Below, in pieces: positions 22,713 to 59,929 of a DNA stretch of 64,000 bases. The notes beneath the pieces are model-generated. The model was given only the letters and a program-made list of their open reading frames with translations. It did not search any database and had not been told where the DNA came from. Every line of letters starts with the position of its first letter. The first letter of the stretch is position 1. The position numbers and the translations under genes are program-made. The DNA comes from Podarcis liolepis (lineage: Eukaryota). The stretch lies in the NCBI GenBank assembly GCA_965112155.1, contig OZ218099.1. The stretch is one strand, 5' to 3'.

Positions 22713-22926
22713 CAGTCGTACCTTGGAAGTTGAACGGAATCTGTTCCGGAAGTCCATTGGACTTCCAAATCACGGCTTCTGATTAGCTGCAGGAAACCGC
22801 ATAAGCCCGTTGGATGTTCGGGTTACAAAAGAACATTCACAAACTGAAACAATCACTTCTGGGTTTGCAGCGTTCGGGAGCCAAAACGTCCGGGTTCCAG
22901 GGTGTTCGACAACCAAGGTACGACTG
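22713..22926. mobile_element. Tc1/mariner-type MITE, family A
   Basis: TIR cagtcgtaccttgg / ccaaggtacgactg with TA flanks. Confidence 0.9.
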
Positions 22927-22928
22927 TA

Positions 22929-23122
22929 CAGTGGTACCTCAGGTTACATACGCTTCATGTTACAGACTCCGCTAACCCAGAAATATTACCTCGGGTTAAG
23001 AAATTGTGCAGCAGTGGCAGCAGGAGGCCCCATTAGCTAAAGTGGTGCTTCAGGTTAAGAACAGTTTCAGGTTAAGAACAGACCTCCAGAACGAATTAAG
23101 TTCTTAACCCGAGGTACCACTG
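22929..23122. mobile_element. Tc1/mariner-type MITE, family B
   Basis: TIR cagtggtacctcaggtta / taacccgaggtaccactg with TA flanks. Internal (tc)aggttaagaa repeats. Confidence 0.9.
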
Positions 23123-24349: not shown

Positions 24350-24519
24350 GATCGTTCCTGTTCTAGAACATTCATCACCACAAACCTCACCAAGCAACCT
24401 GTCCAGCTCTGACAGTTTAGATGTCACCAGGACATACTCCCAAAGAGCAAGTCGCTATGACCTGGATGAAATCGATGCTTGCTGGCTGGAACTCTTCAAC
24501 ATGGAGCTTAAGGAAATGG
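24350..24519 (+). CDS. JADE2: JADE2 internal exon (EPC-like N-terminal region; R-IVPVLEH...SRYDLDEIDACWLELFNMELKEM)
   Basis: Polypyrimidine tract and acceptor ttttcttccctag|G. Donor ATGG|gtaaat. The peptide matches the JADE2 motif SRYDLDEIDAxWLELxNxELKEM. The phase-1 end joins the next exon (G|AA = Glu). Confidence 0.93.
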
Positions 24520-24744
24520 GTAAATGTTGTTGTTGTTTTTAATTCTCTCTTGGGTTGCACACTCACCAGTCTTAAACCAAAGACAAATTTTCACAACCAG
24601 TAGGCTTTCATGCATATTGTAGAAAAAAGAAGGGAAAAATTGTCCCAGTCTATGAAGGATGATGATCTTTGAGAAGTTGATAGGCAATAGGCAAAAGTGA
24701 ATCTAGATATAGGATAAGGCTGCAGTTGGTTACTGGACATTGTC

Positions 24745-24937
24745 TATTCTCTGCCTCCACATCAGAGGCAGTATGCTTCCAAATGCCAGTTGCAGGAAAC
24801 CATGGTATGCTGGGAATGCTCTTCTGCTCATGTTCTGTTTGTAGGTTTCCCACAGGCATCTGGTTGGCCATTTTGAAAACAGGATGCTGCGCTAGATGGG
24901 CCTTTGACTTGATCAGCAGGCTTTTCTTATGTTCTTA
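24745..24937 (+). mobile_element. CR1 LINE 3' UTR
   Basis: ctctgcctccacatcagaggcagtatgc...ggcatctggttggcca...ctagatgggcc, ending in the tail ttcttatgttctta. Confidence 0.7.
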
Positions 24938-25401
24938 CTGATATTTTTTTTAAATAGCAACCATTACTTTGGGATTATTGTGACTCTTTTCATATCCTAC
25001 AAATGTTATAAGCAAAAAAGGGAGGAAGAGAAGTTATATAAGATGTATTCTTTCTTTAGCAGTACATTATTTGCCTAGGACAATTATTTTGCACTAGTGG
25101 ACATATCTGCCAATCACTTTGTCCCTTCCAGATTTGGGTAGAGTGAGTTTGGGGACAACCCCATGGACCAGGACTCTGTATGTTACCAAGGCAAGATAGC
25201 TCCATGTTACTGATTTCCTCTAGCCTCTTGCTGTTCTGGTGAAGGGTCATATTTGTGAGCATAGCTCACCATAGCCTATCTGAGCCTTCAATATACTCAG
25301 TTCTGTGAAGTGGAATGGTGCTGTGGCCTCCAGTTTTTGCAAGGTTGACACAGCCGTTTACCAAACATATTACAGGAAATAAGCTGGGAATTTACCACAT
25401 A

Positions 25402-25756
25402 CAGCGGTGCCTCGCAAGACGAAATTAATTCGTTCCGCGAGTTTTGTCGTCTTGCGATTTTTTTCGTCTTGCGAAGCACGGTGTCGGGAAAGTTTTGGAA
25501 AAGCTTCAAAAATAACCAAAGTCTTTAAAAACCTCAAAAAAGTCTACCACACCACGTTCTATGAGTTGCTCCTCAAAGTCAAGTCGCAACTGTATTAACA
25601 GTGTTAAGAAAAAGGAAACAAACTTGCAAGACATTTCCGTCTTGTGAAGCAAGCCCATAGGGAAAATCGTCTTGCGAAGCAGCTCAAAAAACAAAAAACC
25701 CTTTCGTCTTGCGAGTTTTTTGTCTTGCGAGGCATTCGTCTTGCGAGGTACCACTG
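25402..25756. mobile_element. Tc1/mariner-type MITE, family C
   Basis: TIR cagcggtgcctcgcaagacgaa / ttcgtcttgcgaggtaccactg with TA flanks. Many internal gtcttgcga repeats. Confidence 0.9.
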
Positions 25757-25875
25757 TATCTCCTTCACTGAGGGTTTCCCTCCCTTCTCAGGACTAAGCT
25801 ATATTTATTCAGTATACATGCACAGCCCCCACAATCACACTCTTATGAAAGATCGGGTTGAGGTAGATGTCACAG

Positions 25876-26841
25876 CAGTGGCGTAGCGTGGGGGGTGCAA
25901 GGGGTGCCAGCCGCACCGGGCGCAACATCTGGGGGGGCGCACTCGCCACCTCCAGAGTCGCCGAAGAGCCTCGGGGCTCAGCTCCTTTGGGAGGAGGGGT
26001 CGGGCTGGGTGACCAGGGGGAGTAGCAGGCGCTAGCAAGGAGGTCCGGAGCCGGAGCCTGGCCAGGATCGGGCGCGGGCGCGGGATGGGGCGCAAGAGGG
26101 AGGGGAGAGTCGAGCCTGTCCGCCCCGCGAGGACTGCTGCGAAGAGGCGGGAGGGAGAGGAGGCCCCTTGGGAGGAGCGGGCAGGTGCTGGGGCGGCAGT
26201 GCCGGGCGGGGGCCGAGGGGTGGGCGCCCCCCTGCGCGGGCATCGCCTCGCCGCCGCCGCGGGCTTGGCTGGGTGACCGGCCGAGGGGAAGCGCCAAACA
26301 AGGCCAGGATCCAGGCCCCCGCTCTCCTTATTTGGCGCCCATTTCCGGCTCCCGGGTGGCCCCCTCCCACCCGCTCTCGCTACCAGTGGAAAGAGAGACG
26401 GAGGAGCAGCGGAACCCGCAGCCTTTGCAGGCGCTGCCGGCCGGGAGAGGGGAGCGCGGCCCCGGCCAGCCGAGGGATCTTGTGGCGAGGAAGGAGCCCA
26501 GTCTGCGCCCTCCTTCCCCACAGAGCTGCAGAGGGAAATCAAGGTTCTCCTGCTAGTTTCTCTTCTTCTCTCCCCCCCCCCACTGCGTTACAACCGTGCC
26601 CCCCCTCTCGGTGCACATAGCACGATTGCAATCTCTCTCTCACCCCCCCCAAGTTAAACTAATGGAGCAAGCCAGCGCCAAAGATTTGTAGAACTGTGAA
26701 TACCCGGCCCAGGCAGCAGCAAGAAGCTGGCAGCGGCGGCAGGTTAGGGGTTAGGGGCGCAAATTACTTGCCTTGCCCCGGGTTAGGGGGCGCAAATTAC
26801 TTGCCTTGCCCCGGGTGCTGACAACCCACGCTACGCCGCTG
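25876..26841. mobile_element. Non-autonomous hAT element, 966 bp, GC/CpG-rich
   Basis: TIRs cagtggcgtagcgtggg / cccacgctacgccgctg (1 mismatch). Perfect 8-bp TSD tgtcacag at 25868-25875 and 26842-26849. Confidence 0.9.
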
Positions 26842-29379
26842 TGTCACAGCATGTGTGTAAAGGTGTGATAAACTCCATAACACATTTATGTCATTTCTCT
26901 AGGGCTGTGTCCTACATTTTTATCCTACACTAAAGCTGCAAGCCTGCGCAAACTTATTTCTGAGTATGCCACATTAAAGACAGTAGAAATAGGATTGTAA
27001 AGCAGTCCGGGAAGTTTTGACTTAGAAGTGTCCAAAGTCTTGCTTTAATTAGTACCTTGTTTCCCTTCCCTTCCATTGCTGGTTCCAGAAATTCTCATAT
27101 TGCAGTGGGAATTCCCTGCTTAAAAGTGGGTGTGGGGACAGATCTGTAGATTTAAATTGTAGATTTGTTGGCACATTGGTCCGAAAATGCAAGGTTTCCA
27201 AGAAGTCAAGTGACACCTTATTGGGGCCATCCTGAGAAAATAAGGCAGCTTTAGAGTTGTACCAAATTAGGACCCTAATAGGGGTCCTAATTTTAGCTTA
27301 TGGAAGGCAGTGTATTGGCTGTTGCCTGTTCCTCATCTTGTATATTCTATTTTAAAAACAAACTAGTTCTTGTCCTCAAAGGAAAAGCAACAATGAAGAA
27401 TTGCACAGAAGCTTACTGCTACATAGAGGGTAAGGAAAATACCTATTAGAACCTCCACCCGCCTGATGACATGGAATTGCTCTACCTAGTATAATTTCTA
27501 ATGCCTTTTCCATGCTAGTTTATATCCCCACCCCTGAGATGGGATTTTTAGCTGTGCTGATTACACATGCCTCCCAGAAATAAACAAATATTCTACTTTT
27601 CTGTAGTACTTTCAATATAAAGTAGACATCTTTACCCAGAAACAGAAAAGCCTCAATATAAACAAAATGCACAATTAATTCATCAAGCACAAAACAGAAA
27701 AAGTCAATTTTCTTTATCAGAAGCACATGCCGGCTATCAGCTCCCCTACTTGGTGAAAATACGCAATGTAAAGAGCTGCCAACCGATAACGTGATGAACA
27801 TTTAACTGTGTCTGATGGTTTTATTGGTTGCTGCTGCTGCCATGTGCGATAATAAAGAAAGTTGGTCTAAAGTAATTTGGATCAAACACTGAACTACATT
27901 CACATATAGGACATTATAGGCAGCATAAGACTGTTTTCCTTTTAAGCAGAAGCTGGGCCATTTATGTTTTTATTAAGATTTCACGCCATATACTGTGATC
28001 TCCGTTTAATCCAAAGCTATTGTATGATTGTGACTAGTGAGACTTCAAAGGCATGAAAAGTCCCTTCACTGTTACATAGCCATCTCCCCCCCCCCCACAG
28101 AGCCCCCCTTCTTTTCTATCCTCCTGATTCACTAGCTGAGCTCAGTCTCTTTCTGCCACAAATATATTCTCAGAGAATTTGCAAAAAGACAGTGGGTTTT
28201 ATCTAGTGAAGTCATCCCATTACTGCAAGGACTTCCACCTGTAGCTCAAAAGTTCTTCCAATGAATCTCAAAGTTAATCTCAGCCATTCTAACGATTTCC
28301 TTTGACACAAACTTCTCTGCATCACTGCACATAGGACTGAGCTTAGATTTTCAGTGTCCATATTCTCGTGCTCCGGCTCCCTCCTCTGTGGTTGGCATCT
28401 TAGGTTCCTCCTTGGGCAACAGCTATGGGCACTATTGCTTCACAAGAACACCATTTCATAACTTATTCCCCACAAGAGACAGAGAAACAGTGGGAAACCA
28501 ATGACCACCACCCCAATCCTAGTATATGTGAAGAGGACCTCCAGCTTCTATTGCAAGCAAAGTCTTAGCCCAGCTCAGAGCCATAGTAAGATAATTTATT
28601 CCTTTTTTTGCCTTTGGAGGCAAGCAGAACAACTTTTCCAGCTCTGTTCTTCTATACCTCTTGGGGGCTAGTTGAGAAGCTGATGACCCCATTGCCTGCC
28701 TCAAGCATTATACCATGGAAATATCTGTTCGTGCTGCAGACACTAAGGAGGAGATACGATCATTCCAACTGACTTCCACCTTTTGTTGTGATGGGGGTAC
28801 TTTTTCTTTAGCAGTTGCCCAATGGCCCCAAATACTGCAAATCCAGCTTTTCCAAGTAGCCCTACTTCCAAAAATTTAACACAGCCCTAACTAGAAGAGT
28901 TACCTGGCCTGTTTATTGAAATGCTAAGACTCTTCAAGGTATATTCCATGCTGGTGGTCCTAGGCTGCTGTCCTATTCTCGGACTAAGTCCAATTTAATT
29001 CCTTAGGGCTTATTTTTTGAACGTATGTAGGATCATTTTGTTTTGTTAATTTGTTAATTAGTTACAGGATGTAACTGGAAGTAGGCGATGTCTTTAGTCA
29101 CCTGAGAAGAAGTGGGTATGAAACAGTTCCAGAGGGATGGTCACAAGATCACATGTTCTAAATGAGTTGTTCTTTAATAACTCTGAACTTAGAGTAATGA
29201 AGGATGTAACTGCACTATAATGTCCTCTATAATCTACTGGTGAAGGTAGAAAATAATAGAAAAAGAACCAGCAGGAAGACTCCCAAGAGAACATGTGGCT
29301 TTAAGCCAGAGAGCCCAGAGTCTGAAAACACAAATAGCAGCTTGCCCTAGAATCCAGTCTCCAAAGGAAGCTCTTTAAA

Positions 29380-30530
29380 AATGGACAACTGACTAAAGGA
29401 ACTTTTAAGAGCTAAATACACATAAATAAACCACAGCAATGCTGATGAAGGGAAAACCAGAAAGCCCTGTGTGGTTTGTTTGATGGCAATAAAATAAGTG
29501 GGCCACAGATTCAGCAAAAGATTAATGGTAGGTGTCTTGGCAGTTTCTAATACAGGAAATCAGCAAGCAGGCAAGGTAAATGCTTCTTGTTTTAAAAGCC
29601 AGCTTGTGTAAAAATATTCATTGGACTGTAAGATGGCATGATACTGTATATTAAAGATTGCCTTAATATATCCTTTCATATTCAGTCATGATGCTATAAT
29701 TCATAGGATGCAGGAGTGTGTGTTTGTAGGTGTTTATGTAGGTGTAGACTGTAGGCAACAAAACCATATCAAATTACTAGTGAAAGACTCAGAGACCACA
29801 ATATGTGATTTTCAAATCCATTGTGAAATGCACTTCAGATTGTTCGTCTAAAGCATCCCGTGGATCTTGGAATTCAGAATCAAAGCCTTCCCTACTGAAC
29901 TGTCTGACCAAAGACTTGGAAAGCATGCTGTGACATCAGAGCAACTAAGCCAATTGCAATTGGAGAGTTACAATATTGGGGGTCTTCTTTAGGCATTTAA
30001 TGGCATAGAGATCCTTGCATCTTTAGAGTAAGGAACCTGGCCACTTGCAAGAGTAACAAGCCTACTGTGGCATGAGAGCATTAGCATCAATAGTAGCAGA
30101 GCAATCAGAGGGGATGCAGTACTGTCAAAAAAGAAGTTTAACAATATTCATTGTCTGTCATCCAGGCAGGCTCGCACATATTAATACTGAACTATCAAGT
30201 CATATGAGTGACTGATTTTCAATACATATGTCTAAGCAATACAGAATTCATAAGAATCAGTGCTAAATTCTGTTACCTGTATAAATTATACAAATTGGAC
30301 AACTTCACATACTTTATTTTGCAATTTAACAAATTTGCATAATTCAAACATGGGGAAGGCAAGGAGCCACTGGAAATCTTTGACATCACCTGTCTGACTT
30401 CTTGATATCTCAGCACAATTTAAAGCATATATTTCACACTATTTATGCCATTTTAAGCATATCTTCAAATCCATAAGAAGCAGAAATTACTCTTTTTAAA
30501 GCTGAAAGCTGATATTCTCAGGGAGTTGAA
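29380..30530 (+). pseudogene. Possible highly decayed hAT (Charlie/Buster) transposase
   Basis: Short peptides occur in the expected order: PCVVC (BED-finger-like), IHCLSSRQAR (resembling HCxxHRQAL) and TEFIRISA (resembling VNFIRARA). No long ORF remains. Confidence 0.35.
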
Positions 30531-31977
30531 TTCTCTGCTTTTTCCTGCAATACGGCTATTGTTTATGCCAGAGGTTTTCAACCTTTTAAAGTCTACAGCT
30601 TAAAACTACATTCTTTCTGCTTCCCATCTTCCCTTGTTGAGTGTACCCTCAGCCTAGAAACTGTCCAGCACTGGCATTTTCATCCCTCCATCACTCTTGA
30701 GTATGGTAGACAAAAGTGTGCCAACTAGCCCTGGTGGAACGCTGAATGCATCAGCTCCCATGGTACAAAGGTCTTACTAAGACTGATAAGTTTAAGGGTA
30801 CCTGGTGATTCCCCCAGGTGTTTGTTACTTGATCTGAAGGGCACATTCAAACTCCAGTCTCACAGCTCAGTCTTTGGAGACACTTAGTTTAGGACAGTGA
30901 TCACTCGTGATTTTTGGTTTACCTCACATAATATTTTTATTCAATTTTAGCTTTGAGGTGCTTTCTCCCAAAAAGTTATATGCTGCAACGTATTTGCAGC
31001 TCCACTGTGCTGTTTACGTTTCTCTCTTTTATTGTATTATCCTTTCTACCATTTTTCTTGCTCTGTTTGTCCTCCTTTGAGTCTTGTAGCTGCTTTCTCT
31101 ACTTGCATAACAGAATGAAATAAAGGCATATTTGAGGGGTGGGAGGGGAGAAAATTGTAGCTGCTCAGGTACCGATGGCCAAGCTAGGAGTCCTTCCTGT
31201 TCCCCCAAGAGTCTCTTGTGCCCTTCAAGTGGGGAGGGTGGCCCCTACCGATTTGAGAAATCCTGATCTAATGCACAGTCTCCAGTAAGGCTTAATTAAG
31301 GTCTATTTATTCCTCAAGGAGGAAGGGAAAGCAGTTATTAAATTGAGCTTGGGTGCGTGGGAGCAAAGCTCTTCTCATGAGCAGTTGATTTCCTGATCAG
31401 TCTTGTTTGTACTGCCAGTAACAGCTGATTAGAGGCACTGTCAATAATGTCTCTGTGTTCGGCTTTCTCGTGAGGAGGGGGGCTGAGAGATGAAGATACA
31501 CTTGTAGATGGAACTGTAGGAGATGTTTCACATATAATTTCCTGAAATACAGTTTAGTATATTGGTCTTTTACAAAACAGCTAGCACTTGATTTTGAAAT
31601 AATTCTCTTGTACACTTTGTAGACCCAGAAATGTGTATACTTTACAACTGGTTTTGACTTTAATCATCAGTATTCTATATTTTACTCAGTTTTTGGACCA
31701 GAGCACATAATATGCCTTCTACCAGATCAGACTGTTCATCCATCAAACCCAGTATTGTTCACTTTGCGTGGCAGTGACTCTCCAGGGAGTCAGGCAGAGG
31801 CATCTTTAACATCACTTGCAATGTGGTTTCCTAATTGGAGATGCCAGAGATTTAACTTGGGGACAAAGCATGTTCTCCAACACTGAATAGGGTAGTAGTC
31901 TGGCTAGTGCTTTCTGTATTCTGCAATGTGTGTCTTATGAATGGGTAAGGTGGATAAGTAGAATGCAAACCCTACTC

Positions 31978-32423
31978 CAATGGTTTTCAGACTTTCTTGT
32001 CTGGACCAAACTTCCTTGTCTGAATAAAAATTTGTTCACGCCACACCAATTATTTTTTTTTACTGATAAGAAATACATTGGGAAACAAAAAGAAACAACC
32101 CCTGGCAGTGCTTGATTTATAACAAGTGAAATCAATTACCTTATAAGATGATCGTGGGGCATCCAGCAAGTATAAAACAACAAGTCTTCTCCAGCACTCT
32201 TGAACCGTGATTCTGGATCATAGCTAGGATTGTCCTCAGTATCGATTGATGCTCCTGTTCTCATTTTGAAAAGATACCTATCCATATTCTTTAATATAAA
32301 TATATAGAGATACAGTACAGATACAGATACTATACTGTACTGAAATGTTTAAATGTTTCTTTGATTGTCCTTGAATCTTCTTGCCACACCAATACGGCAC
32401 GCCACACCCTTTGAGAACCTCTG
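31978..32423. mobile_element. hAT-Charlie-type non-autonomous element
   Basis: Ends caatggttttcaga / tttgagaacctctg. TSD ccctactc / ctctactc. Confidence 0.62.
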
Positions 32424-34210
32424 CTCTACTCTGTTGCCCTTTTCATGTTCCGATCTTTATTGAATTAAAGATTGGTTAAAGATTCTTCAAACTCCCCCCC
32501 TCCCCTGAGCTGTGTTGCAATCTATTTTATTTTGTCTTTGCAATGCCTTGTAGGTATATTCCATTTATAGAACTGATCTTCTTTTGCGCTTCAGTGAATG
32601 AAGTCTGAATCAAAATCACTGATATATTGGTATTGTAACTGAAGTAGTGCTTAATACTGTTCCGTCTTTCATCTCCTTGGCACTGTGTATTTTACTTCTT
32701 GAATTGTGGGTGGGATGTGGGAAGCCATGTCCTTTTAAGCATGGATTCTACTTCCTTTAATTGTCAGGCCCACTTCCTTCTATCTGCTTTCCAACCAGTT
32801 CCTGTGGTATAGATCATCCTTGTTCATGTCTGACTACATATTGCTATTCATATATTACAAACAGGAGGAGGATGCCATTAAGAGTCAGTTCATCCATTTG
32901 TCTTCCACATGTATGGTTACCAAGCTCTTTGATTTTGTAGGGGAAGTGAACTCATCTTAGGATAAAGTTTGCAGGAAATACCCTATAATCAGTTTAGAAG
33001 GCAGTTTTCATTTTCTTGGAACTCTTTTTGGTAACCCATGTGTTGCACAAGAAGCCTTCAAGTGAGGGCTGAATTTTTTTGTTCTCATCTCTTTTTATAT
33101 GAATAAGAAAACCAGTAAACCCACTGCCACTTAACACTGTGCTAACGGTTTTGAATGGAGGATGCAATCAATCATAGGAATTAGATGTGAACTAGCAATT
33201 ATAGAAGCCTTGGAAACAGATCTGGAGCTTGGTCTCACTTAGTTTTTCACCACTGTCAATCTGAAGCAGCTCCATTGGACATTCCAGAGCTGATTTTGTT
33301 GGTCTTTCATTAAATAAGTTATTACTTTTTACAGAACATGTGCAACATTGCTATTAAAATTGATTTTTTTCAAATGTATGCAGCCGTGGGATGTATTATT
33401 AAGTTTATAATATGAAGTATTTAAAAGGCCTCAAGTGATCAATACAAATAAGTGCTTTATAACTAGAGAGACCCGAGGTCTCATTGACTTCAATATTTGC
33501 CTTCATGGGGGCGCAGAAGCATAATGCGAGGAAAATGTTCTGCTGCATTAGAATTAAAAACCCATGCAGATCTCTCTGGGACAGCACTTGAGGAGCTAGT
33601 AATGATTCAGTTACTGCTGGAAAATCCATTAGGATTACCACTTCTGATGTAGTGGATGTTCTTACAAAGAATGATAGAAAAAATGACAAAGCCAGATTTG
33701 TTGATGTTCCGATCATTTTACTTTGCCTGTGGTTGCGATCCTGTTACAGACTTAATCCTACTAAAAAGCACCATTGAACTCAGTGGGATAGAATTGTGTT
33801 GTAACGTAAGGAAAAGGGCCTTTTCAGTTGTGGCATTCCTTCCTTAGAGAAGCCCAGCTAGCGCAATCACTACTGTTCCTTGAGAAAACAGTGAAAACAG
33901 GTTTAGATAATTCTCCACGTTCATTTAATCCTACTCCAGGGCCCCCAGTACAGGAGCAATGCTTCTTTGGGAGCATTGGGGAGGTATGTAAGTTGCTGCT
34001 TTCCCTGCCCCTATCTCCTGGTAAGCCCCCCTCATACACACACAGGAACAGGGCTGTATAGGGGCAGCACTGGGGGCACTTTGCCCAGAACCTCCTCAAA
34101 ACCGGGAGCCAGTTATGTATCCGGACTTGAGAGGATACTAGGAACAAAATAGCCTCATAATCAGAGTTGTCTCAGAACAGTTCTGTGATAGGAGAGCTTT
34201 ATTACAGAGG

Positions 34211-34211
<1 letters not shown>

Positions 34212-34241
<30 letters not shown>
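34212..34241. repeat. (TG)n microsatellite
   Basis: Read directly from the sequence. Confidence 0.95.
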
Positions 34242-34244
<3 letters not shown>

Positions 34245-35064
34245 ATTATAAAGTGACTTCTAAAAACATTTTGCCATCATCTTAAATTTAAGAAATAATT
34301 GATGTTGGTGGGTGGCATAAAGGGTGCTAATTGGTTCCTGTAAATCTTTTAAGTGCATTAGCGGGATGTGCTCATAATGAAATATCTAGGAGCTTCATAG
34401 CGCACGCTTGGCTCATCTGCTAGCTGTATTTTGTTTCATTTATGGAGAAGGGTTTGTGTGGCACTCATCACTGTATCACCTGAGCATCTTAATGCACCAC
34501 TTTAAAAAGAAGCAAGCATTGTGTTGTTCCTTTTATTCCCTTTACAAAGGAAGCAAAATCAGAGGTAAATATTTAGAAGGAAGGAAGCACGGAAGGGTCC
34601 CATCAATTTCTAAATAATCCCCTTGACGTTCATGGGATATATCCAGAGCTGGTGATTTGTCAACAAGTTCACCTCCTGATCCTAACAGAAAGCAGGTTAT
34701 ATGCTAAGAAGGTTTTTAAAAATATACCCCTTCCAGCTCAGAATTTCTGGACCCCACCATGATGTAGCCAGATTGCATGATTTATCTTTTGACAGAACTC
34801 TGCCTCTAATTTCCATTGGAATATTTGAAATGATTTGGTATCATTGTCACTGAACAATCAGAGCACACCAACACACCAGGGTTTGGGGGATTAAGGGAGA
34901 GAACCAGTCCTATTTATTTCTCGTGCTTTGAAATCCCAGTTCACATTCTGATAGTTTTAATAGTTTTTATTCTTGCAGAATCCCTGTGGGGTAGGTAAAG
35001 GGCATTTTCAAAATAAAGCAGACAGATTTTAAGTGCCTTTCTTAAAGCTATCTACAGAAAGAAC

Positions 35065-35073
35065 ATTATTATT

Positions 35074-35104
<31 letters not shown>

Positions 35105-35122
35105 CTATTGTTATTATTTATT
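35065..35122. repeat. (ATT)/(TTG)n microsatellite, likely the tail of a minus-strand LINE
   Basis: Read directly from the sequence. Followed by aaatttatataccacccttcat. Confidence 0.85.
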
Positions 35123-36546
35123 AAATTTATATACCACCCTTCATTTACAGCATAAGAATACCAAATGAGAACACAAAATATGTAACAACGACAACTAAAC
35201 CAATAATCCCCCTCCCACAAAAACGTATAAAAGGTCATAAATTAAAAGTAAGATAAACATTTGGTGCATAGGAAATACTGTCTCTGATTTGAAATCTGCC
35301 TTATGCTGCTTTTAAAAAAAGGATGCCCACATGCTTACTGCTGAAATTTGCCAAAAGAGTAAAATAAAAAAGAAGACAAAAGACTTAGGGCTTAGGCAGT
35401 AGAGTTTCTTCCTGTTAAAATTGTAGGATTGCAGCAATATTTATTATATCTCAGTATCTAAGAATGGTTATATATGTTATACATATTAGTATGCGTGTGT
35501 GTGTCTGTGCGTGCGCACACACACAATTAGGTTTGTGCTGTTGGGAATCAACTAATGGCACAGCCAGTGGCCTTAAAATTGTTGCTCATGAGCAATTTTA
35601 TCATCCTCTCCAATATACTCTGCAGGGCGAAAGGAGTTCTGGTTTCAGTAAATTGATTTCAGTTGAAGTGCAGTTTAGCTGGAAATAAGTCTCAGTTATT
35701 GCACAAGGTGGTTCATCTGTTAATATTTCTCTCTGGCTTATTAAGCAATTCATTATCAGAACACTTCAAAAGTAGAAAAATGTGTATTTAATGGGAAACT
35801 GTTGATCCTCTTGCCATGGGACTAATATGAGCATGCCAAACCACCACACCTCTACCACAGAACATCATTATGAAGACGTGGTTGATGAGAGTCCAAAGAA
35901 AGAGAATTCTCAATGGGATGATTGGAGCCTCACCCTTGCCTGATGCTAATCTCAGCGGAGAGATTGGATTGGCAATGCAAAGTGGGATCCTTTTTTAATA
36001 GTGTTTTGTAGTACTGCCCTGGGGGTAGAAATACTGAAGGACAGGATATATAAATATAATCACAAACCAACCAACTAAACAAACAAACGGAGTTCTGTTT
36101 GTAAGTTTTGAATTTATGACTACTTATTTCAGACCGTTGTGAGGTTTTGACACATTTCATTGCCTTTTGCTGTCTATGAAAAACACTAGAGTTGACAACC
36201 TTCTTGCTGGCATTGCTCCTGTACCTGTATTTTTGCTCTAAAGCAGGACTGGCAGAAATTAAGCATTTGACACTTTCCTCAGAACATAGATCTGATGGGA
36301 AGCATCACCTGTTCTGTTTCTGCCTGTCATGCAGTTTTTAGGTGCAGCAGTCCTTCCTTTTAAAAAAGTTGGCAATTAGTAAACATCCATCAAGCAGTAT
36401 TTATATCCATTGTAACTTATTTTACACAAGGAGGGATATAAATAGATAGCTTCCTTTCCCTAGTGGTTGAACCACGGCTTTCCCAGGCCTGTTTTTATGT
36501 AGCAGGTCCCCGCTATCAGAATGCTCATTATCCAAAATCTCAGTTA

Positions 36547-36715
36547 CAGATAGGTAGCCGTGTTGGTCTGCCATAGTCAAAATAAAAAAATTCCTTCCAG
36601 TAGCACCTTAAAGACCAACTAAGTTAGTTCTTGGTATGAGCTTTCGTGTGCATGCACACTTCTTCAGATACTTAGTTGGTCTTTAAGGTGCTACTGGAAG
36701 GATTTTTTTTATTTT
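36547..36715 (-). mobile_element. Penelope-like retroelement terminal remnant with partial inverted repeat
   Basis: Flanked by the 16-bp direct repeat tccaaaatctcagtta (36531-36546 and 36716-36731). About 45 bp at ~36579-36623 recurs inverted at 36671-36715. Contains the hammerhead motif. Confidence 0.8.
36634..36671 (-). ncRNA. Minimal type-I hammerhead ribozyme motif in a Penelope-like element end
   Basis: The minus strand reads GUAU-CUGAAGA-A-GUGUG-CAUG-CACAC-GAAA-GC-UC-AUAC. That gives stem I GUAU/AUAC, core CUGANGA, stem II GUGUG/CACAC, GAAA, a palindromic AGCU stem III and the cleavage triplet CUC. Confidence 0.8.
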
Positions 36716-38362
36716 TCCAAAATCTCAGTTATCCAAACACAAAGAATTATACCCAAACCTCACTACACAAATGGCTGATTCAGATATCTTGAACAGCCGA
36801 GAGTTTGCCCACTTCCTTACTTGTTTGTGTTTTGCTGGTTGGCGGCAGCCATTTTAAGCAGAAAGCATGGAGGGAGGACGAGAGATCAGACAAATTGGAG
36901 AGCTGGAGAGATCAGACAAATCCCCCCCCCTTGTTTGACTTCTGCTGATTGGCTGCAGCAGTCTCAGTCAGAAAGCAGGGGGGGAGGAAGAACCGACAAA
37001 TCACGAATTAGATATGTCCCCATAGGAAATAATGAAAGTCATCAACTTGTTATGCAAACACTCGCTTAACAAACAATTTCCTGGGATATTGAAAAGCAGG
37101 GCCTGCGTGTGCTTTTGAATTTGTTTGTGTTAGTCTAATTACATAGTCCCTTAGCACTGTGTCTGGGATTGCTATAGAGATTCCAGCTCTCTTTCAAGGG
37201 GCTGCTTGCATATTACATTTCCCCTGCTGCTCTAGAGTGAAAAGCACTGAACTGTCTAGAAATGGTGCTGGCTCTGCACTTTCTCTCTCTCTCATGCCTG
37301 TGACATAAGTGAAGAACAAGATACTTGATGGCCAAGAGAGCTCCTCTGTTGAACACTGTCAAAAGCCAATAGTTCCACTCAGTAGTTCTTTTGGTGTTTT
37401 TTTAAAGAAAACTTTATGAATAGCAATAACTTTATATGATGCTGAGGAAGATAAATGGAGCATAAATGGAAAAAGAACTTTACCCTCAGGCCTCGTCGTT
37501 TAGCGATTCATAAGCCATTAATCGCCTCATACCCATCAAGTACATTTGTCACTTGAATAGGCTCCGGGGTACTTGTGAGTGGAGCTTGGCAAACTAATTA
37601 CAGTGCTAATGTAATTACACATAAATGGAATGCAAGTGTATGTGTGTAAGAGACAAGAGAAGGAGATTGGCCGTATAACCAACGAGCGTTCCCGTTCATG
37701 CAGGCATCGCATATAATTCTTGCTTACTGTTTAAAAGCCCCAGTGGAGCGCCAGTCTTCTGCTCGCCTTCAGAACTAAGCAAAGCCAGCCAGGAGATGGA
37801 AGAGGTTTTTCAGCATCTCTGTCCCATTTCTTGTGGGTTCAGCTGGCGATATCACTAACAATGAAAAATTTACAGTCTTCACTGGCCAGAGGGAAAAGGC
37901 TGTAACAGAAGGCGTAGGGTAAGGATACAGTTGCAGGCATAAGAAGTTTGTTTCCACTTTGAATTAAATAGGCACCCTCTCAGTGCTTTTGTCAACTCTG
38001 GCTTGGTGTTATATTTCTTTTGAAAACCCTCTCCGTACCTTCTTCACCTTTGTCCTGCTTTGTGAAAGGAGAGCAGTTTGGACCCAATGCTAAGCCATAG
38101 TTTGTTTAAACCACGGTTTGTGAAGAAGTAGGGTTCCACTCACAGACAAACAAAGGAACAGTGGTTTATTTCATTTGAGGTTGGTTTCTTGTCCCCCTGC
38201 CTCTTTTTAGCATTTCAGGGCTGGCTTCCGTTACAGAGTTTTTATTGGGAGTAGTGACTTTCTTATTTCTTTTTATACAAGTGTTCATCTTCCTGCTTAA
38301 CTGGTAAGCTGAACGATGCAAGCTCTGTAGGCCTACTTCTTCAGAGAGGTGGATAAATACTA

Positions 38363-38563
38363 CAGTGGTACCTCGGGTTAAGTACTTAATTCGTTCCGGA
38401 GGTCTGTTCTTAACCTGAAACTGTTCTTAACCTGAAGCACCACTGCCGCGCCGCCGGAGCACGATTTCTGTTCTCACCCTGAAGCAAAGTTCTTAACCTG
38501 AAGCACTATTTCTGGGTTAGCGGAGTCTGTAACCTGAAGCGTATGTAACCCGAGGTACCACTG
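38363..38563. mobile_element. Tc1/mariner-type MITE, family B (opposite orientation to 22929)
   Basis: Perfect TIR cagtggtacctcgggtta / taacccgaggtaccactg with TA flanks. Internal taacctgaa repeats. Confidence 0.9.
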
Positions 38564-41500
38564 TACTAGTTTATAGTACATTCTCTGGAATTCCATTTGC
38601 ACCTCCTATCTATTCCACAGGTTGACAAAGATCCTTACCTCTTCCTTGTTCCAGTCTTTGACTGCATGTATGTGGGGTGCCAATTGCTGTGAAATCCTTG
38701 TATCCTTAGCAGCAGCAGAGGGAGTCTATGAGAGAAAGTCTTGTCTGCCGTAGCTGTGGCATAGACACTGACCTCTCTGTGTGTTTTAGGTCCCAAGAAT
38801 ACCAATTTAGATTACACATATTAAGTTTATTCACCTTCCAAGGAAACATGAAGAAGTACCAGGTGTGTATATGGGCTTTTTATTGTCCTTTACTGGACAA
38901 TACTTGTCACATGCTCTTCACAGCCTTGATACCTAGGGTCCAGCATGACTGCCTCAAGGGAGCATGCATGCCTGGGTTGCTTGGGTCCATGGAAATGGCT
39001 TTCTGGAGTCACTCTTCGGTCAACAATGTACTAAGTACAGAGGATTCGCAAATGTGGCTTTCCCAGAAGCAGAGCTGCAAAAAGCACTTGAGTGTGGAGG
39101 AGCAAAGGTTGGTGTTGTCTGCTTCCTTCGTGTGGGTTTTTGCATTGGTTTTTAAAATTGGATAAGTTGCTAAGAGCAAAATTATGCTTTTATTATGCGT
39201 TCCTGGATAGATGTTAGGAAAATGGCCCAACCTTTTTCTCAGGTTTTTTCTTCCCACAAGGGTGCTGCAGAGCTAGGCTGGAGAGAGGGGGCTAGTCAGC
39301 AAGGAGGTTTGTGGAGGAAGAAGCCTGCTGTCAGGTAGAGTGAGGACAAGGTGCAGAAAACGTTGCCCTGTTCCTCTGTAACCTTGCAAAGTGAATGGCT
39401 GGGATGGAGATTTGGGGGGGAAACTAGGATGAAATCAAGATAGTCTGATCAGACATGACACCAAACCATGGTTAATGCAAGTCAGGATTGCCATGGTTTC
39501 AGATTATGGTTTGTTGGCTCCCAATAAACCATACAAACCATAGCTAATTCGTTGGGAAGCGAGTTGAGATGTGGAAATAAAACCACAGTTAAGCTAACAA
39601 ACCATGGCTTAGCATTAACTTGAAACATAGATTCATAGCAAAGACACTGCCATAATTGCTGTTCTACTTAATATCTGTACTGGCTCTACCTCAGATTTAA
39701 TGTATGAGCATTAAGAAAAATGTGGTCAGTTACAGTAGACTATTTGTTGTCCTCCACCTTAGTTTACCTGTTAGACTGCATAAAAGAAAAAAGAAAAGAA
39801 AAGCAGGAATCATGCAAACTAGGGCTTCCAAATATTGAAACTTGTTTGGTTGACTGGCTTTGAATTTCTTAACAGTTGGTTGACATAGAAATAATTGGTT
39901 TACATTGAAATAAATACATGTTTTTTCTCAGCACAGGTGTCATTTAGGTTATTTGTAGAATGGAAGTGCTGATTTCTCATTTAATAGCACAGCAGAATAA
40001 TTTGTTTAGACAGACCTTGCTTCAACTTGAATGAATTGTTCAGTTAATGCTTTCAGTCCTATGAAATGATACTTCCAATAATATATAAACAAAGAATCCT
40101 CAAGCTAGCTAGCTTTGTCACATCTGGCCTGCAATACACACTTCAGGTTCTGTAGCAGTGAAGAACAAGTAGAAAGGCACTTGTTTTCCAAAACATAACT
40201 GGATCCTGAAATGCTTGATGAACTGACTTGTTCTCCTCAAGCTCATGGAAAGCATTCCAGTCGCTTCAGGGCTAGGGTCCTCCTCCCCACATTTTCCAGA
40301 GGCAGGGCCCTTCAACTTTTGTTGATGCAGAAGGAGATGGATCTCCCTCCGTGTTCCCATGTCAGACCTGCCTAATGTCAGAAATACAGAGTCTTGTCAG
40401 AGCTCCAGAGAAATTTGACAGTCCTCCCCAAAAGGATAGCTTTGATCTTTTACCCAGCCTGTCATGAATTAGGCAGGGCAAGTGCAAGGGAAATGGAACA
40501 TTAGTCCATTCGGTACCTCTTTGCTCCCTCTTACAACTGGGTGGTGGGAGTGCACAACAGTGTCTGCAGGTTCTGTGGGTGGAATGAGCATCTGGGGGCA
40601 GAAAGGTAAGGACAGCAAAGGGATTGCAGCCTAGACAACAGAGGTATTTTGTTGTAGAACACTCCGTTTTCTCTTCTCACTGCCATCCCCCCACATCACT
40701 GCTCAGCAATGGCATGATATAGGCTCTGCTCCTTTGGTGGGGGGGGGGAGCGGCCTGACCAAAGGGGCCTTCCCCAGCCATTCCTTACCCTGGTCTTCAC
40801 TCAAACAAGAAGGGAAAAGGGAATAGAAGCAGCTCCCCAGGAAGAGGCAAAGAGAGAGAGGCACCACAATAGCTACAACAGGTTTTCTAGCATTGTGATC
40901 CTACTCAGTCCTCAGAGAAAAGGCATGTGTCGTGGTCAGAAACCTGCCAGGATTTGATTATCTAAATGCACATAGCCTCTCCTTCCTTGACTCAGGATCT
41001 CGATTAGGGAAAAGGCTTACCATTTTAAAGGGTGCTAATATGCATACTCAAGCTCTCGCTGGACAATGCTTCTTTATACTGCCATCTTCAGTAGAAGCCA
41101 GTAGCTATAAAGCCCCTCTCAAAAAGTTGTCTGTGTGTACTGTGCCATGAAGCAGTATATACTAAGACTGTGTACCAGCCACAAGATTCAACCTGTACCT
41201 GTAGCTTTGGGAAGCAACCCATCTGTTTTAGCAACTTTTATGTCTTTTCAGCTCAACACATTATTTGAGACCAGATAGATCTGTTAGAAAAACGAATCTG
41301 TTGCTTTCTTTCCATTCACTACAATGGGGAATATAAAAACAGGGATATAACTTTTTTAGTTTTACAGAGGTGCATGAAGGTTGCAGACATAAGAGCCTCT
41401 CCAGAATAGATTAAGCCTGCAAAATTGTAGGCAACTGATTTTTATTTTATTTTTTAAAATGGGGTTTCTGTTCCCCATAACATATTTTTGCAGATACAGA

Positions 41501-42481
41501 AAGAGAGAGCTCTCTATCAACTATGCTTCACTTTGCCTTTTTTCTTTTTTTAAAAAAGGCCACCCAGGTCTACCTGGGACTTTAGCAAGTTCCTGATCCA
41601 TTGCTTTGTTAGCGGCACAATCTAACTACAGAATATGAAAACCTCACCCAAATCACCCCTATTTGCCTTATAATTTGGGAAGTACACAGAGTCAATGCAT
41701 GCTTCCTATTATATATCAAATTAAGATTCTGAAAGCATCCTGTAGTCATCCATGAGGTTTGCCAACAGCAAAACTGGTACTGTTAGGTTTCTCTGCATGT
41801 TCTAGCGTAACTATTCTAGCATTTGAAAGCCCTAGTAGGGAATTGTGTTGTCTGGCTGGCTGAATCCCAGACTGACATAGACATGCAAGATGCCAATCCA
41901 GATCCTTGCCTAAACTTGTCAGGCCAAGGAAAACAGCATGAAAATGGATGGCTCTTTGAGACGCGCTTTATGTTGCCCAGGTGTCCAAGCACATTGTAGA
42001 TCTGCATGTTTTCTGAGCCAATTACTCCCTGCCAAAATTCAGATAGTGGTATCTGAATAAATTGTTCAAATTGCATACACCTTATTCTCTCAACAATGTT
42101 TAACTCTCCCTCTCTGTTTTAATATTGTGCCTATCCTTGGTCTTCTGCACAGCTGTTAACACAAAACTGCTCAGATTTCTGCATTATTTTCCATAATTTA
42201 TTCTGTGTACAACCTTAGGTTTTTCAAAGAATTTAGTGTTCTTGACAAGAGGTGGGGAAACAGAAATGCGTAAAGAGAGAGAAAGGACTGGATACTGAGA
42301 CCTAAACGCTTGTGAAAGGGGTGTGTACTGGGAATAGCTACAGGGCAAAGAGAATAGAGAACCAAAGTCCCAGCTCTCAATCACTGGCAGTGCTTCACCA
42401 AATGCTACAAAAAAACAGCTTCTTTCTACTTAATAGCTTTAACTAGGAAGTAACTACTTGTACCATAATCATACCCTAGAT

Positions 42482-42712
42482 CAGTAGCTCCCAACCTTTT
42501 TTGGCCATGCCCCACCTAAGCATCTCTAAAATCCTGATGCCCTCCCCCCGTGAGATGTAATTCTTATTATTTAAAAAGTGAACTCCTATCCACGTGGAGG
42601 AAGCCTAAAATGAGTTATTAACTATTAATAACTCATTCTCAAATTCCCACCCCCTTAAAAATCAAATTGCCCCCCCCCCTGTGGGGTGTGTACCCCACAT
42701 TGGAAACCATGG
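42482..42712. mobile_element. hAT-Charlie-type MITE
   Basis: Ends cagtagctcccaa / ttggaaaccatgg. Flanks ccctagat / tcctagac resemble the Charlie target NTCTAGAN. Confidence 0.58.
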
Positions 42713-42844
42713 TCCTAGACCCAAGCCCAGGAGGGGGTGACATTTCAGGATCAGGACATCCTGGACTGCAGGCCCATTACCATGAAGAAGAATAAAAGAG
42801 GCTAAATTGCCAGACTTAATTATCTGTAACTATATGGAGTATCT

Positions 42845-43196
42845 GGACGCGGGTGGCATTGTGGTCTAAACCACTGATCCTAGGGCTTGCCGATCAGAAG
42901 GTCAGCGGTTCGACGGGGTGAACTCCTGTTGCTCGGTCCCAGCTCCTGCCAACCTAGCAATTCAAAAGCACGTCAAAGTGCAAGGCAAGTAGATAAATAG
43001 GTACCGCTCCGGTGGGAAGGTAAACAGTGTTTCCGGGCGCTGCCCTGGTTTCGCCAGAAGCGGCTTAGTCATGCTGGCCACATGACCTGGAAGCTCTTCG
43101 CCGGTTCCCTCGGCCAGTAAAGCGAGAGGAGTGCTGCAACCCCAGAGTCGTTCATGACTGGACCTAACAGTCAGGGGTCCCTTTACCTTTACCTTT
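42845..43196 (+). mobile_element. Sauria SINE, near full length
   Basis: Head ggacgcgggtggcattgtggtctaaacc, core aagtagataaataggtacc, and (ACCTTT)n tail. 14-bp TSD tatatggagtatct / tatatggggtatct. Confidence 0.9.
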
Positions 43197-46100
43197 TATA
43201 TGGGGTATCTACTAAAGGTGCACCATATATATCCACTACCCCCTGCACACTTTTACAAGGCCATTCATACCTTGAAAAAAATTGGGGTGGGGATATTTGG
43301 AGACCTGGGGAGGAAATGGCAAAATTCTTACACCTTTTTAGGCTCTCTTTTAGGTTGCTGGCTCTGTAGAGCAAACACAAACAAACAAACAAACAAAACA
43401 TGCTTATAGATGAAATTCTAGAATTTGTGGTTTGAGACACAAGAGAGTCCCGTGCCACTATGTGTGACATGCTGTCTCAAGAGCAACAAGCCCCAAAGAG
43501 TTCCTGCTGGCATTTCCTAGTCTGAGGCACCAACAGGGTCTGGCAGCAGGAGGGTGGAGCAAGCACTACAATAATCAAGGGCATTAACATCACAGGGAAA
43601 GTGGGAGTCCATGTTGCCAATAGGATTTCTAAGCCCCAGGACATATGTGGCTTCTGAATCCTGGCTTGCTTGGAAGCCGTTGACCTTAGTTTCAGAGACG
43701 TACATAGGGTCCCTTGCATCCTTGCAAGGAGCTGATACAGCACCCACCCACCCGCCGAAAAATATCACTTTACTGCACACTTTTGTGCCATGCTGCAGGA
43801 AGGACTGGAAGCTTCTCCTGCATTTGAATTCACTGTGACAGCGGCGGCGTGCCACCACACACATACATTGTACACTCCATAGTCTGGGAGGTGATTTCTT
43901 CCCCCTCCCTGGGTCTGCGCCCCCCAGCGGGGGCCAGTTTCACAAACCCCTGGGTATGTCTCTGCTTGGTTTCCAGTTCACATATGGCAGTAAGCTATGG
44001 TAAACTTCACTTCCTACTTTGTTTTGTCCACGCACATGAAGGAAGGAGTGAAGCAGCAGCAAGGGGGCTCTGTGTACTTGCATGAATTTCCATTCATTCA
44101 TTCGAAACATGTACCTCCTGCTCTGCAACTGGAAAAGCTCCCAATTAAAAAACTAGCAAACCAGGCTTTCAGTACATGACGAAAAGAAAAGGGGATGGGA
44201 AGCGAAGAGGAACAGAAGCTCAACCTATTATTCTGTAACTACTACTTTTGCAGTCTGGATCCAACCTTTACACTATCTTGCAGTTGTTACTTTTCTGCCC
44301 GTATTAAGAGAAGCCTTTTATTCCTCCCCTCTTTTGATCCTCACATTCAGTTCATCACATCATTGTCCCAGGGGTCATGGCCAGAGGTTAGGGTGCACCA
44401 CCTTAGAGATCAACAGGAAGCCCATTTGATAGGAGCACCTGCAGAAGAGCCTTTGAAGATAGCTTACATTGATTGGTCAGATGTAACCAGTGTATTTGGT
44501 CTCAAGGGGAGTGCATAGAAGAATGGATCTGAGAGATGGGGAGCAATGTCTAAAGGGCATTTGTTATTTGCGTAAAATTAATATGTATGCTCATCATATT
44601 CTCATGTCTGGCAGTCATACATCCAGAAACATAAGAAACTTAAACAAAGGGACCTAAAAATCCCAAAGGACACCAATCAATGCTCTAATATTTCAAAATA
44701 GGAAAAAAGGAAGCAGATCTGTGTTACAACTTTGTACTGGGTGCAGAGGAATAATTATTGCGCCCTGAATATGTGCTACAGGAGTGTAAGTTGTGGATTT
44801 GCCAGTTGTGTTTACACCACTGATTTTGCACTGAATGCAATGTGTGCATATTACAGATAAATCACAGCATCATTCTGCACCACGAACATATGGTGTGAAC
44901 CATAACTGAAAATCACTTTTATGATCCTGCTTATGAATAAGATAATCTGTATTGCTCTACAAATTTGGTTAGGTGGTGGTAATTGTGTACTTTTGATTTA
45001 ATTGTGGTCATCTAACCTGTTTTCTTTTGCATATTCATCATTTATTTATTGATTTAGATTTCAGTTGGGGAAATATGATGCAAATACCCTTAGCAAAATA
45101 AAATGTGTAGCAGCAAGAGTGTCTTGCAAATATAGCACTTCTCAAAGTACCCCTCTGAGACACCCTGCTTATTCAGTGTTTTTAAAGGTAAGAGCTATGG
45201 TGCTCTAGTTAGCCTTATTGTACATGCTCAATGGCAGACTGTTCCATTGAACAGTGGGGTTGCATTCCTATTGGCCTTGGAAAAGTGTTGGAATGGAAAA
45301 AAAACCCTCAAAGAACAAGTTGAGTGAGAATGAAGGCTTGGTGAAATTTTAACATTTGTAGATTTTCCTGCTTTAGTTGCTAGTTTTTATTTATTTATTT
45401 GTATCTTTTAAAAAACTGTATATCATTTCTCTCCCATTATCAACATCTTAGCTAATTAACAAAATATCAATAAAATGTCCAAATAACAATTATTAAAAAA
45501 CAAATAATCATGTGACTAAGGTAGCAGCCAGAAATTACTTTTGCTAACAAGACGTGTTTGGTATAATTTCAAAGTAAAGATTCCTGCTGTGGATCAGCCA
45601 CTGACAGGATCACATTACTAGCTATTGTTACTGAGAAATCTGGTATAATGAGAATAAAAAGCAAAGTAAGACATACAAAAAGTAAGCAGACCACCCCATT
45701 TTAGCATATCAGCTGACTAGGGAAAACAAAGAACCACTACCACAAAAAGGGGTAGATTTTAAGAGTGCAAGAAAAAAAATTATAAAATACAGTTAACATA
45801 AATACCAAAAAATACAAAACAAATTAATTTTTCGCTTTTTGTAAAGTTTGTGAATGCCCCCTCCCCTTTAAATTTTGTGCAGGGGGTGTAAAGCAAACTA
45901 ATAAACACATTGTGAGCAGTTGCCATTACTGTTAAAGTGGATCAGTTTTCACAAGCTTATTTGCATCAAAGCATTCTTTTTAAAAGTTCAAACAACAGAG
46001 AACATCCTTGCAAGACATAAATGTTGATACTGCCAAAGCAAATTATTGGCACTGGTTTGACTGATCTCATCCCTCTTTACTACCCACTGTTTGCCACTTT

Positions 46101-46609
46101 AATGGACACATCCTTTTATTACTAACTGTGACACATAAACTCAGCCTTCAGAACCAAAAGCAGCTTTCTGAACAAGACCTTGTTTTACCAATCCATTTGT
46201 CTATTCAACACTATAAAGTGTTTCTTTTATGTACAATGACCTTGTAAAAATACCCTTTATAGGTAGTTACTTATGTAGCTCAGGTACAATGGCAGGTACT
46301 CCAGGGAGTTGCTTCCAGGACTTAAAAGCAAGACTGGTTAACAGAACAGTCATAGTCCACAAAGGGAGCAGGATTGTTGTTTCTTTAAGTAGGCACCAAT
46401 TATAGTCAAGGGAGGCAAGCATTCTTTTCTATGCCCAGCTTTGGCACCTATTTCGATTGGGCTAAGGTGATGAGGCTCTGTCAACGATGTGCTCCTTTTG
46501 TGTCGGTTGTGCTGCGATTAAACATAACACCCACCCTTTCTCACTGCGACAAAGTTTGAGAACCCTTGACATTAAAGTAATTTGAGCGTCGTTGTTTTTG
46601 GTCTTTTAG

Positions 46610-46821
46610 AAAAGCCAGAAATGGATGAATTCACCTTGGAAAGAGTACTGGAGGAGCTGGAGACGCTGTGCTATGAGAACATGAACGTTGCCATCGAGAC
46701 AGAAGAAGGTCTCGGCATAGAGTACGATGAGGATGTCGTGTGTGACGTGTGCCGCTCGCCAGAAGGAGAGGATGGCAACGAGATGGTTTTCTGTGACAAA
46801 TGCAACGTCTGCGTGCACCAG
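46610..46821 (+). CDS. JADE2: JADE2 exon, start of PHD1 ([21 protein letters not shown]...[27 protein letters not shown])
   Basis: Acceptor gtcttttag|A and donor CAG|gtgagt. The sequence [27 protein letters not shown] matches JADE2 as I recall it. Confidence 0.97.
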
Positions 46822-59540: not shown

Positions 59541-59637
59541 ATAGTTCATGTTACCCCATGCTAATTAGTATTATATCATAGCTAGCTGACCTTTTGACCA
59601 GCACACTGGCTTCAAGTATCAATAACTTTCAAAATGT

Positions 59638-59712
59638 GTGCATGCACACGAAAGCTCATACCAAGAACTAACTTAGTTGGTCTTTAAGGTGCTACTGGAA
59701 GGAATTTTTTTA
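59638..59712 (+). mobile_element. Second, 5'-truncated copy of the same Penelope-like end
   Basis: Near-identical to the reverse complement of ~36581-36657. Flanked by the 11-bp direct repeat tttcaaaatgt (59627-59637 and 59713-59723). Lacks CTGAAGA. Confidence 0.8.
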
Positions 59713-59929
59713 TTTCAAAATGTAGTAAGCAGGGCAAAGGCATGGCCCTTGTGTGCTCTGAATAATTGGTCACCAGGGGAAAATATGGAGAGGAGAAATA
59801 AAAACCCTGCATCGTTCTTTTCTGATTTGCAACTTCTCAGGATGTTAATGTTTGTGACATCCTACAGAAATTTCATTAGCCACCTTGGAATCCTTTTGGA
59901 TGAAAGGCAGTGTAAAAATAAACAAGCCA

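Follow-up and report, generated by a model that had tools for sequence, protein, structure and literature searches.

The stretch of Podarcis liolepis DNA analysed here (contig OZ218099.1 of assembly GCA_965112155.1; 64,000 nucleotides, hereafter the window) carries in an intron, antisense to the host gene, a motif that reads as a hammerhead ribozyme. This raised the question of what kind of hammerhead it is, how it came to lie there and whether this copy could still cut.

Read base by base, the minus strand from 36671 to 36634 forms a predicted minimal type-I hammerhead. Stem I has 4 bp (36671-36668 as its 5' strand, 36637-36634 as its 3' strand) and is followed by the first core box C3-A9 (36667-36661, C3 being 36667), an extra A between positions 9 and 10.1 (36660) and a 5-bp stem II with a 4-nt loop (36659-36655 paired to 36650-36646), closed by the G10.1-C11.1 pair (G36659-C36646). 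The second core box G12-A14 (36645-36643, with G12 at 36645) leads into A15.1-G-C-U16.1, a loopless palindrome that replaces stem III (36642-36639), and then into C17 (36638), 3' of which cleavage is predicted (36637..36638). Stem II and its loop together make a perfect 14-nt palindrome (36646..36659). The core boxes are intact and stand, with a UH site, in type-I order. The base-by-base check thus bore out what the first-pass annotation had described, namely all core nucleotides with stems I and II of 4 and 5 bp, and the base positions confirmed its cut between 36638 and 36637. Its description of the hammerhead as "complete" holds for the core bases but overstates the case for the whole, since stem III is unable to close in a monomer.

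Motifs of this type were defined by Cervera and De la Pena (2014; PMC4209133, available portions) as the min-HHR of metazoan Penelope-like elements, with four hallmarks. All four are shown by the 36634-36671 motif, which has an extra nucleotide between 9 and 10.1, the G10.1-C11.1 pair, a palindromic 15.2-16.2 with no or a tiny loop III, and a short stem I. This comparison supported the earlier assignment to a minimal type-I hammerhead of the Penelope kind.

The motif lies inside an insertion of 169 bp (36547..36715) placed between target-site duplications of 16 bp (36531..36546 and 36716..36731, plus strand). The duplications are exact, the longest match in 400 random flank pairs being 11. On the minus strand the insertion opens with an inverted piece (36715-36670), followed in order by the hammerhead, a spacer, then a U-tract, and lastly a tail of 32 nt. 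All but the first of these belong to a forward, tail-bearing piece of 125 nt (36547..36671, minus strand), whose 5' truncation falls at the outer border of stem I. The one-sided tail (36547..36578, minus strand) measures 37 nt if 36542-36546 are included, 5 nt that are common to the tail and the left duplication; the family tail extends over these 5 nt, so the target matched the RNA there. The second piece is inverted and tail-less (36670..36715, plus strand; 46 nt); 45 of its 46 bases are complementary to 36579-36624, the left arm of the 46-nt inverted repeat (36579..36624, plus strand), which is part of the forward piece.

Penelope-like insertions are known for an inverted 5' copy, an optional one-sided tail of 30-40 nt and short duplications (available portions of PMC8557442, PMC3846280, PMC2377424 and PMC8969392). 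The locus shows a one-sided tail of 32-37 nt between two reverse-transcription start sites, and an inverted 5'-truncated copy (the 46-nt arm) together with the 16-bp duplication.

Three further observations concern the insertion and its surroundings. The insertion landed in an older element that is moderately repeated (about 36510-36900), with a depth of about 50-100 times that of the flank and about 85-90% identity. Read on the plus strand, 36579-36715 folds into a 46-bp hairpin, a possible dsRNA substrate in the pre-mRNA; the folding energy of the 169 nt on the host-gene strand is -86.7 kcal/mol. On the minus strand, a reading frame (36653-36543) starts at an AUG in loop II and runs for 9 codons to a stop at 36626-36624, beyond which 27 more codons are open up to the tail end; position 36626 is variable in 38-50% of the family depth. 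Penelope termini contain the opening codons of the element's frame (PMC11167929 and PMC3846280, in part), but the indels seen in the U-tract speak against a coding constraint on the 36653-36543 frame.

The window holds a second copy of the family, of 75 bp (59638..59712, plus strand), with 11-bp duplications (59627-59637 and 59713-59723), each of its ends having 2-3 nt in common with its duplication. It is identical to the 36547-36715 insertion at 80/80 nt and lies on the sense strand in a later intron of the host gene. This copy begins precisely where stem II does on its 5' side, without the first core box and without a tail, and it stops, as does the inverted arm, at the U-tract. A 16-nt match at 44399-44414 was rejected as a family copy, there being no further likeness within 150 nt around it. 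Elsewhere in the window, 22926-23131, 25400-25765 and 38358-38572 are related short inverted-repeat elements, MITE-like, and 4877-4934 (minus strand) gives a weak tRNA match of 31.7 bits, perhaps the head of a tRNA-derived SINE.

We have surveyed the family in four of 24 listed sequencing runs: X1 and X3 (DNA, organism A), X2 (DNA, organism B) and X23 (RNA, organism H). The family was present in 13,864 contigs of X1, 11,334 of X3 and 8,693 of X2, and its summed depth over the element was about 1e5 times that of single-copy flank, a figure that is not a copy number. Two copies per 64 kb would scale, very roughly, to ~1e4 copies. The family is very large. In all four runs its 3' ends pile at 36541-36543 and at 36578-36579 (among the best 24 of 998 loose-end entries), corresponding to tailed and tail-less ends. 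Eight of the variants (40 of 139 entries listed) fall in the element, and just one of them in the hammerhead motif: a C to U change at position 17, at 19, 16, 31 and 10% of depth in the four runs, which still gives a permitted UH site. Scans of viral contigs, metagenome contigs and prokaryote genomes with the motif pattern gave 0 matches, as expected for an animal repeat, and these collections yielded no longer family copy. The available supplement of PMC8557442 likewise held no match to the motif. A search for literature on lizard Penelope families and on antisense intronic Penelope hammerheads found nothing on this family, which may already be annotated in Dfam or Repbase or listed in the supplements of the 2026 preprint. 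Neptune would be a tentative first guess for its clade.

The same runs bear on the age of the insertion. In X2 and X3 the left-flank contig has 2 further, unmatched letters beyond 36546; in X1 it ends at 36546 itself. From these 2 letters in 2 contigs, we read X2 and X3 as the empty site and X1 as a branch between filled and empty. No joint skipping the insertion appeared among the 15 of 68 joints listed. As two of the three DNA runs are apparently without it, the insertion is likely young and polymorphic.

Taken together, we consider it highly probable that the locus is a minimal type-I hammerhead within a 169-bp fold-back insertion with a 16-bp duplication, likely a truncated Penelope-like end-piece, in a copy that is predicted to be catalytically silent. 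According to this explanation, an element-encoded endonuclease would have nicked both target strands 16 bp apart. One nick would have primed reverse transcription in the tail through the 5-nt target match, and the synthesis would have copied 125 nt through the uncleaved hammerhead as far as stem I's outer edge. Priming from the other nick would have taken place at the second start site, the U-tract, giving rise to the inverted 46-nt piece, and the two pieces would have been joined at a 2-nt microhomology. The hammerhead would be a passenger, which in the parent element may work in dimeric form or together with the protein of the element. Any antisense RNA made here would fold into the 46-bp hairpin, which would remove stem I, and host-gene transcription reads the opposite strand. 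In both window copies the sequence runs across the cut site, which implies that their templates were uncleaved.

Against a Penelope origin, the insertion is a stub without an RT/GIY-YIG reading frame and too short for one, and in the available portions of PMC4209133 the turtle motif bears no mark of association with a Penelope frame. Membership is indicated by structure, and a derivative that is non-autonomous is possible, if unlikely. In such a case, the family would be a separate unit of ~130 nt, retrozyme-like and mobilised in trans by a Penelope protein, and the present copy a monomer offspring that would still be inert.

At the locus itself, the junction of arm and forward piece is the outer edge of stem I, with the inverted arm overlapping stem I by 2 nt (36670-36671; microhomology). 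The first-pass annotation had put the inversion breakpoint exactly at this edge (36671); the placement stands within the microhomology, but "exactly" must be softened, the position being ambiguous by 2 nt. The breakpoint is distinct from the cleavage site, which lies 34 nt away on the far side of the core. Nor is the stem I boundary special to the 36547-36715 inversion, since other family copies end there too. In X1, 31 contigs leave the family at 36670 into unlike flanks (agreement 0.41), and 95-97 contigs per run leave at 36671. The exits at 36671 are partly forced, because the window departs from the family sequence there, and for this reason the loose-end pile-up at 36671 was rejected as sole proof of a hot spot. 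Past 36671, 4 bases are common to all four runs and about 9-13 to three of the four, and beyond these common letters the agreement is only 0.35-0.36. Contig counts over-represent unique flanks. X1 also gave two single-locus head-to-tail joins, 36671 to 36541 and 36671 to 36578 (among the best 12 entries); a head-to-tail (pseudo-LTR) arrangement is absent from 36547-36715 and these two joins are at other loci. They may be natural tandem loci of family units.

The many copies that leave the family near stem I into unlike flanks (agreement 0.35-0.41; best 24 of 998 entries) and the two joins at 36671 speak for a separate non-autonomous unit, as does a preprint that derives vertebrate non-LTR retrozymes from Penelope terminal repeats, with a reptile mean of 176 bp (bioRxiv 10.64898/2026.07.22.740005, in part). 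Yet the family sequence continues past 36671 in the letters common to the runs, the exit counts carry the bias towards unique flanks, described retrozymes have canonical hammerheads in tandem arrays (PMC7229834, available portions), and Penelope insertions are characterised by just such an inverted arm and tail. The retrozyme hallmark of a canonical hammerhead in each unit of a tandem array is replaced here by a solo, minimal motif, and no circular-RNA joint was found among the 15 of 68 X23 joints listed. On balance, a separate unit is not what we expect, although it retains a real share of probability.

We have kept as a lead that the recurrent 5' boundary at stem I is a hot spot. In a bolder form, which we regard as decidedly doubtful, reverse transcription would halt at the outer edge of stem I throughout the family. 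The minimal hammerhead would then be less a cutter than a boundary signal, as a protein-bound fold or through a splice acceptor one base outside stem I, setting the 5' ends of tens of thousands of 130-nt stubs, and fold-backs breaking there would disable their own ribozyme. Against a strict boundary, nine of the 15 joints listed (of 68) resemble other fold-backs with breaks at 36569-36628, and the second window copy breaks at stem II. If true, the boundary reading would assign a non-catalytic function to the Penelope minimal hammerhead. From 36672 onward, other family copies carry a stretch of pyrimidines that closes with CAG one base beyond stem I and resembles a splice acceptor. An intron of D. 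virilis ends at the 5' end of helix I (PMC4209133, in part). In Fig. S3 of the same source, as available, a pyrimidine-AG lies near the stem I edge in ~19/56 motifs (counted by eye), not far above chance, and its turtle entry has none there. A splice acceptor just outside stem I is thus weakly indicated.

We then turn to catalysis by this copy. In the folding predictions, which leave out tertiary contacts and proteins, the pairing probability of stem I was 0.56-0.65 without the arm and 0.01-0.02 with the arm, the inverted arm being predicted to capture the first two bases of stem I. Against this, the hammerhead fold cost only 3.1 kcal/mol in constrained folding. For a growing antisense transcript, stem I reached 0.4 on completion and was at most 0.02 from 4 nt later (past 36630). 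The energies for two molecules were -28.0 kcal/mol for a stem II duplex, -11.1 for a double hammerhead and -12.0 for two monomers. Hence, owing to the stem II palindrome, two molecules would favour the inactive stem II duplex over the double hammerhead, and in that duplex stem III is predicted to be still unable to close. On these models, this copy is predicted to be catalytically silent.

The X23 RNA run was consistent with little cutting in the family. Both directions cover the element about equally, with a depth that is smooth over the cut site, and, taking one fifth of depth as the threshold, no pile-up of read ends was seen anywhere (1,447 reads, from some 12% of the run), X23 being from another, related organism, with 0 reads on the unique flank, and cleaved RNA being liable to decay. 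The library looks stranded (about 1 vs 20 at 36728-36853). Family RNA of the hammerhead strand thus appears to be present, mostly uncut, in organism H. A T>C change at 36620 was found in 168/463 reads of one direction and in 10/406 of the other, and at 0.1-0.3% of the DNA depth. Read on the minus strand, 36620 gives the A of a UAG within the stem of the fold-back, and the change may reflect either A-to-I editing or a variant that organism H carries in one abundant transcript.

The first-pass annotation had proposed that short-stem-III motifs of this kind cut as dimers, and that this copy could be rescued by the RNA of a second copy. The general statement agrees with the published record: min-HHR, reported in turtle and snakes, had no activity as monomers and low activity as dimers (PMC4209133, available portions). 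The rescue is unlikely, given that the motif lies on the non-coding strand of the host gene, that the arm takes stem I and that the stem II dimer is favoured; moreover, the window offers as a partner just the 59638-59712 copy, on the opposite strand and without the first core box. Cutting of the antisense RNA as a double hammerhead, formed with another copy by pairing of the stem III palindromes, would have in its favour that all core bases are intact, that the arrangement is sterically nested with 0 crossings, that family RNA of both strands occurs in organism H, that dimers of such motifs cut weakly in vitro (PMC4209133, in part) and that the anole ribozyme cuts with its protein (PMC11167929, in part). 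However, the energy of the active dimer is no better than that of two monomers and far above that of the stem II duplex, stem I is lost to the arm, host-gene transcription reads the opposite strand, X23 has no pile-up of ends, and 1/9 Xenopus dimer elements cut in vitro (bioRxiv 10.64898/2026.07.22.740005, in part). Cutting in this way is improbable.

The host gene was recognised by JADE-family exons on the plus strand on either side of the insertion (24350-24519 and 46610-46821) and by its EPL1, PHD and zf-HC5HC2H domains. The hammerhead lies antisense to it within an intron of 22,090 bp (24520..46609, plus strand) that runs from the EPL1-region exon to the first PHD exon. The best PDB matches are JADE1 and JADE3, neither identical. 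Of the earlier placement, antisense in a JADE2 intron, the orientation and the JADE-family intron stand on exons and domains; the paralogue is tentatively taken as JADE2, by exclusion, since the PDB alignments show mismatches to both JADE1 and JADE3. The same intron has a CpG island (25500-26600), a possible internal promoter, with a GC of 0.74 and a CpG observed/expected of 0.75 at 26001-26500.

The intronic position and the intact core could suggest a domesticated ribozyme that regulates the JADE gene, like the conserved amniote intronic hammerheads. Those are conserved in introns, whereas the present motif is minimal rather than canonical, antisense to the gene, and at a site that is apparently empty in X2 and X3; the perfect duplications and the 80/80 identity to the second copy are also signs of youth. 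We regard domestication as very improbable.

As to how readily such a motif arises by accident, the two core boxes by themselves are no commoner than expected by chance (5 matches in the window vs 5.75). The full descriptor, requiring both boxes, a stem II of at least 4 bp, a stem I of at least 4 bp and UH, had the 36634-36671 motif as its sole match on both strands of the window. Dinucleotide shuffles gave any descriptor match in 1/300 and a match of equal strength in 0/300, the latter by a strict filter chosen post hoc with the motif already known. The 38-mer folds into stems I and II, with a folding z-score of only -0.44. The covariance-model check proposed with the first-pass annotation turned out negative: hammerhead families were absent from the 13 Rfam matches at E<=10 in 34000-39000, Rfam had 0 matches within 36622-36680, and no hammerhead reached the gathering score across the window, which fits a motif that has no stem III. 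The Rfam mir-559 match (47.5 bits vs a gathering score of 95) and the lactis-plasmid matches only reflect the hairpin and were rejected. A chance match to the hammerhead consensus, with which the core-box frequency, the lack of an Rfam hammerhead and the small z-score agree, has negligible probability, being already refuted by the shuffle test and by a published turtle homologue with compensatory pairs, and the motif sits inside a tailed, inverted retro-insertion.

As a single locus this is of little weight, minimal hammerheads of Penelope ends having been known since 2014, with thousands of solo copies per genome. Its value is as a clean young specimen of Penelope integration, with two priming sites, tail, inversion and duplication. 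It also points to a very large reptile family, apparently still mobile, where the role of the minimal hammerhead can be studied.

Among known systems, the closest motif, nearly identical, is that of the painted turtle (Fig. S3 of PMC4209133, in whose available alignment there is no lizard entry). It has the same core and the same stem III pair, an extra base between 9 and 10.1, and likewise the G10.1-C11.1 pair, a 4-bp stem I and a 5-bp stem II. One stem I pair and one stem II pair are changed on both sides between the two motifs, making two compensatory pairs. Loop II has 4 nt with a palindromic stem II here, and 7 nt without a palindrome in turtle, and position 17 is C here and U in turtle. 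Published min-HHR are likewise mostly solo copies of truncated elements (PMC4209133, available portions).

The amniote hammerheads of RECK, CTCL and DTNB (PMC6155905, available portions) are also type-I and in introns of amniote genes, but are canonical and conserved across species, whereas the present motif is minimal, antisense and apparently polymorphic. Animal non-LTR retrozymes (PMC7229834 and bioRxiv 10.64898/2026.07.22.740005, both in part) share with this insertion that they are short, non-coding and related to Penelope termini, with a type-I hammerhead and monomer offspring in introns; they differ in their canonical hammerheads, tandem arrays and circular RNAs (PMC7229834), where we find a solo minimal motif and an inverted arm.

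Truncated Penelope insertions (PMC8557442, PMC3846280 and PMC2377424, available portions) have the same head-to-head inverted piece, one-sided tail and short duplication. Unlike those, the present insertion totals 169 bp and has no reading frame, and its duplication is of 16 bp compared with 8-10 bp in the rotifer examples. The anole Poseidon element PAc (Frangieh et al. 2024, PMC11167929, in part) has its tail between two reverse-transcription starts. Its ribozyme needs protein, and cleavage is dispensable for insertion; RNA-seq ends are absent at the cut, and uncleaved RNA served as template in vitro. PAc starts without homology, whereas here 5 nt of the target match the tail. The likeness to PAc is one of structure: an uncleaved template, no read ends at the cut, and two reverse-transcription starts that bound a tail about 90-125 nt downstream of the hammerhead region.
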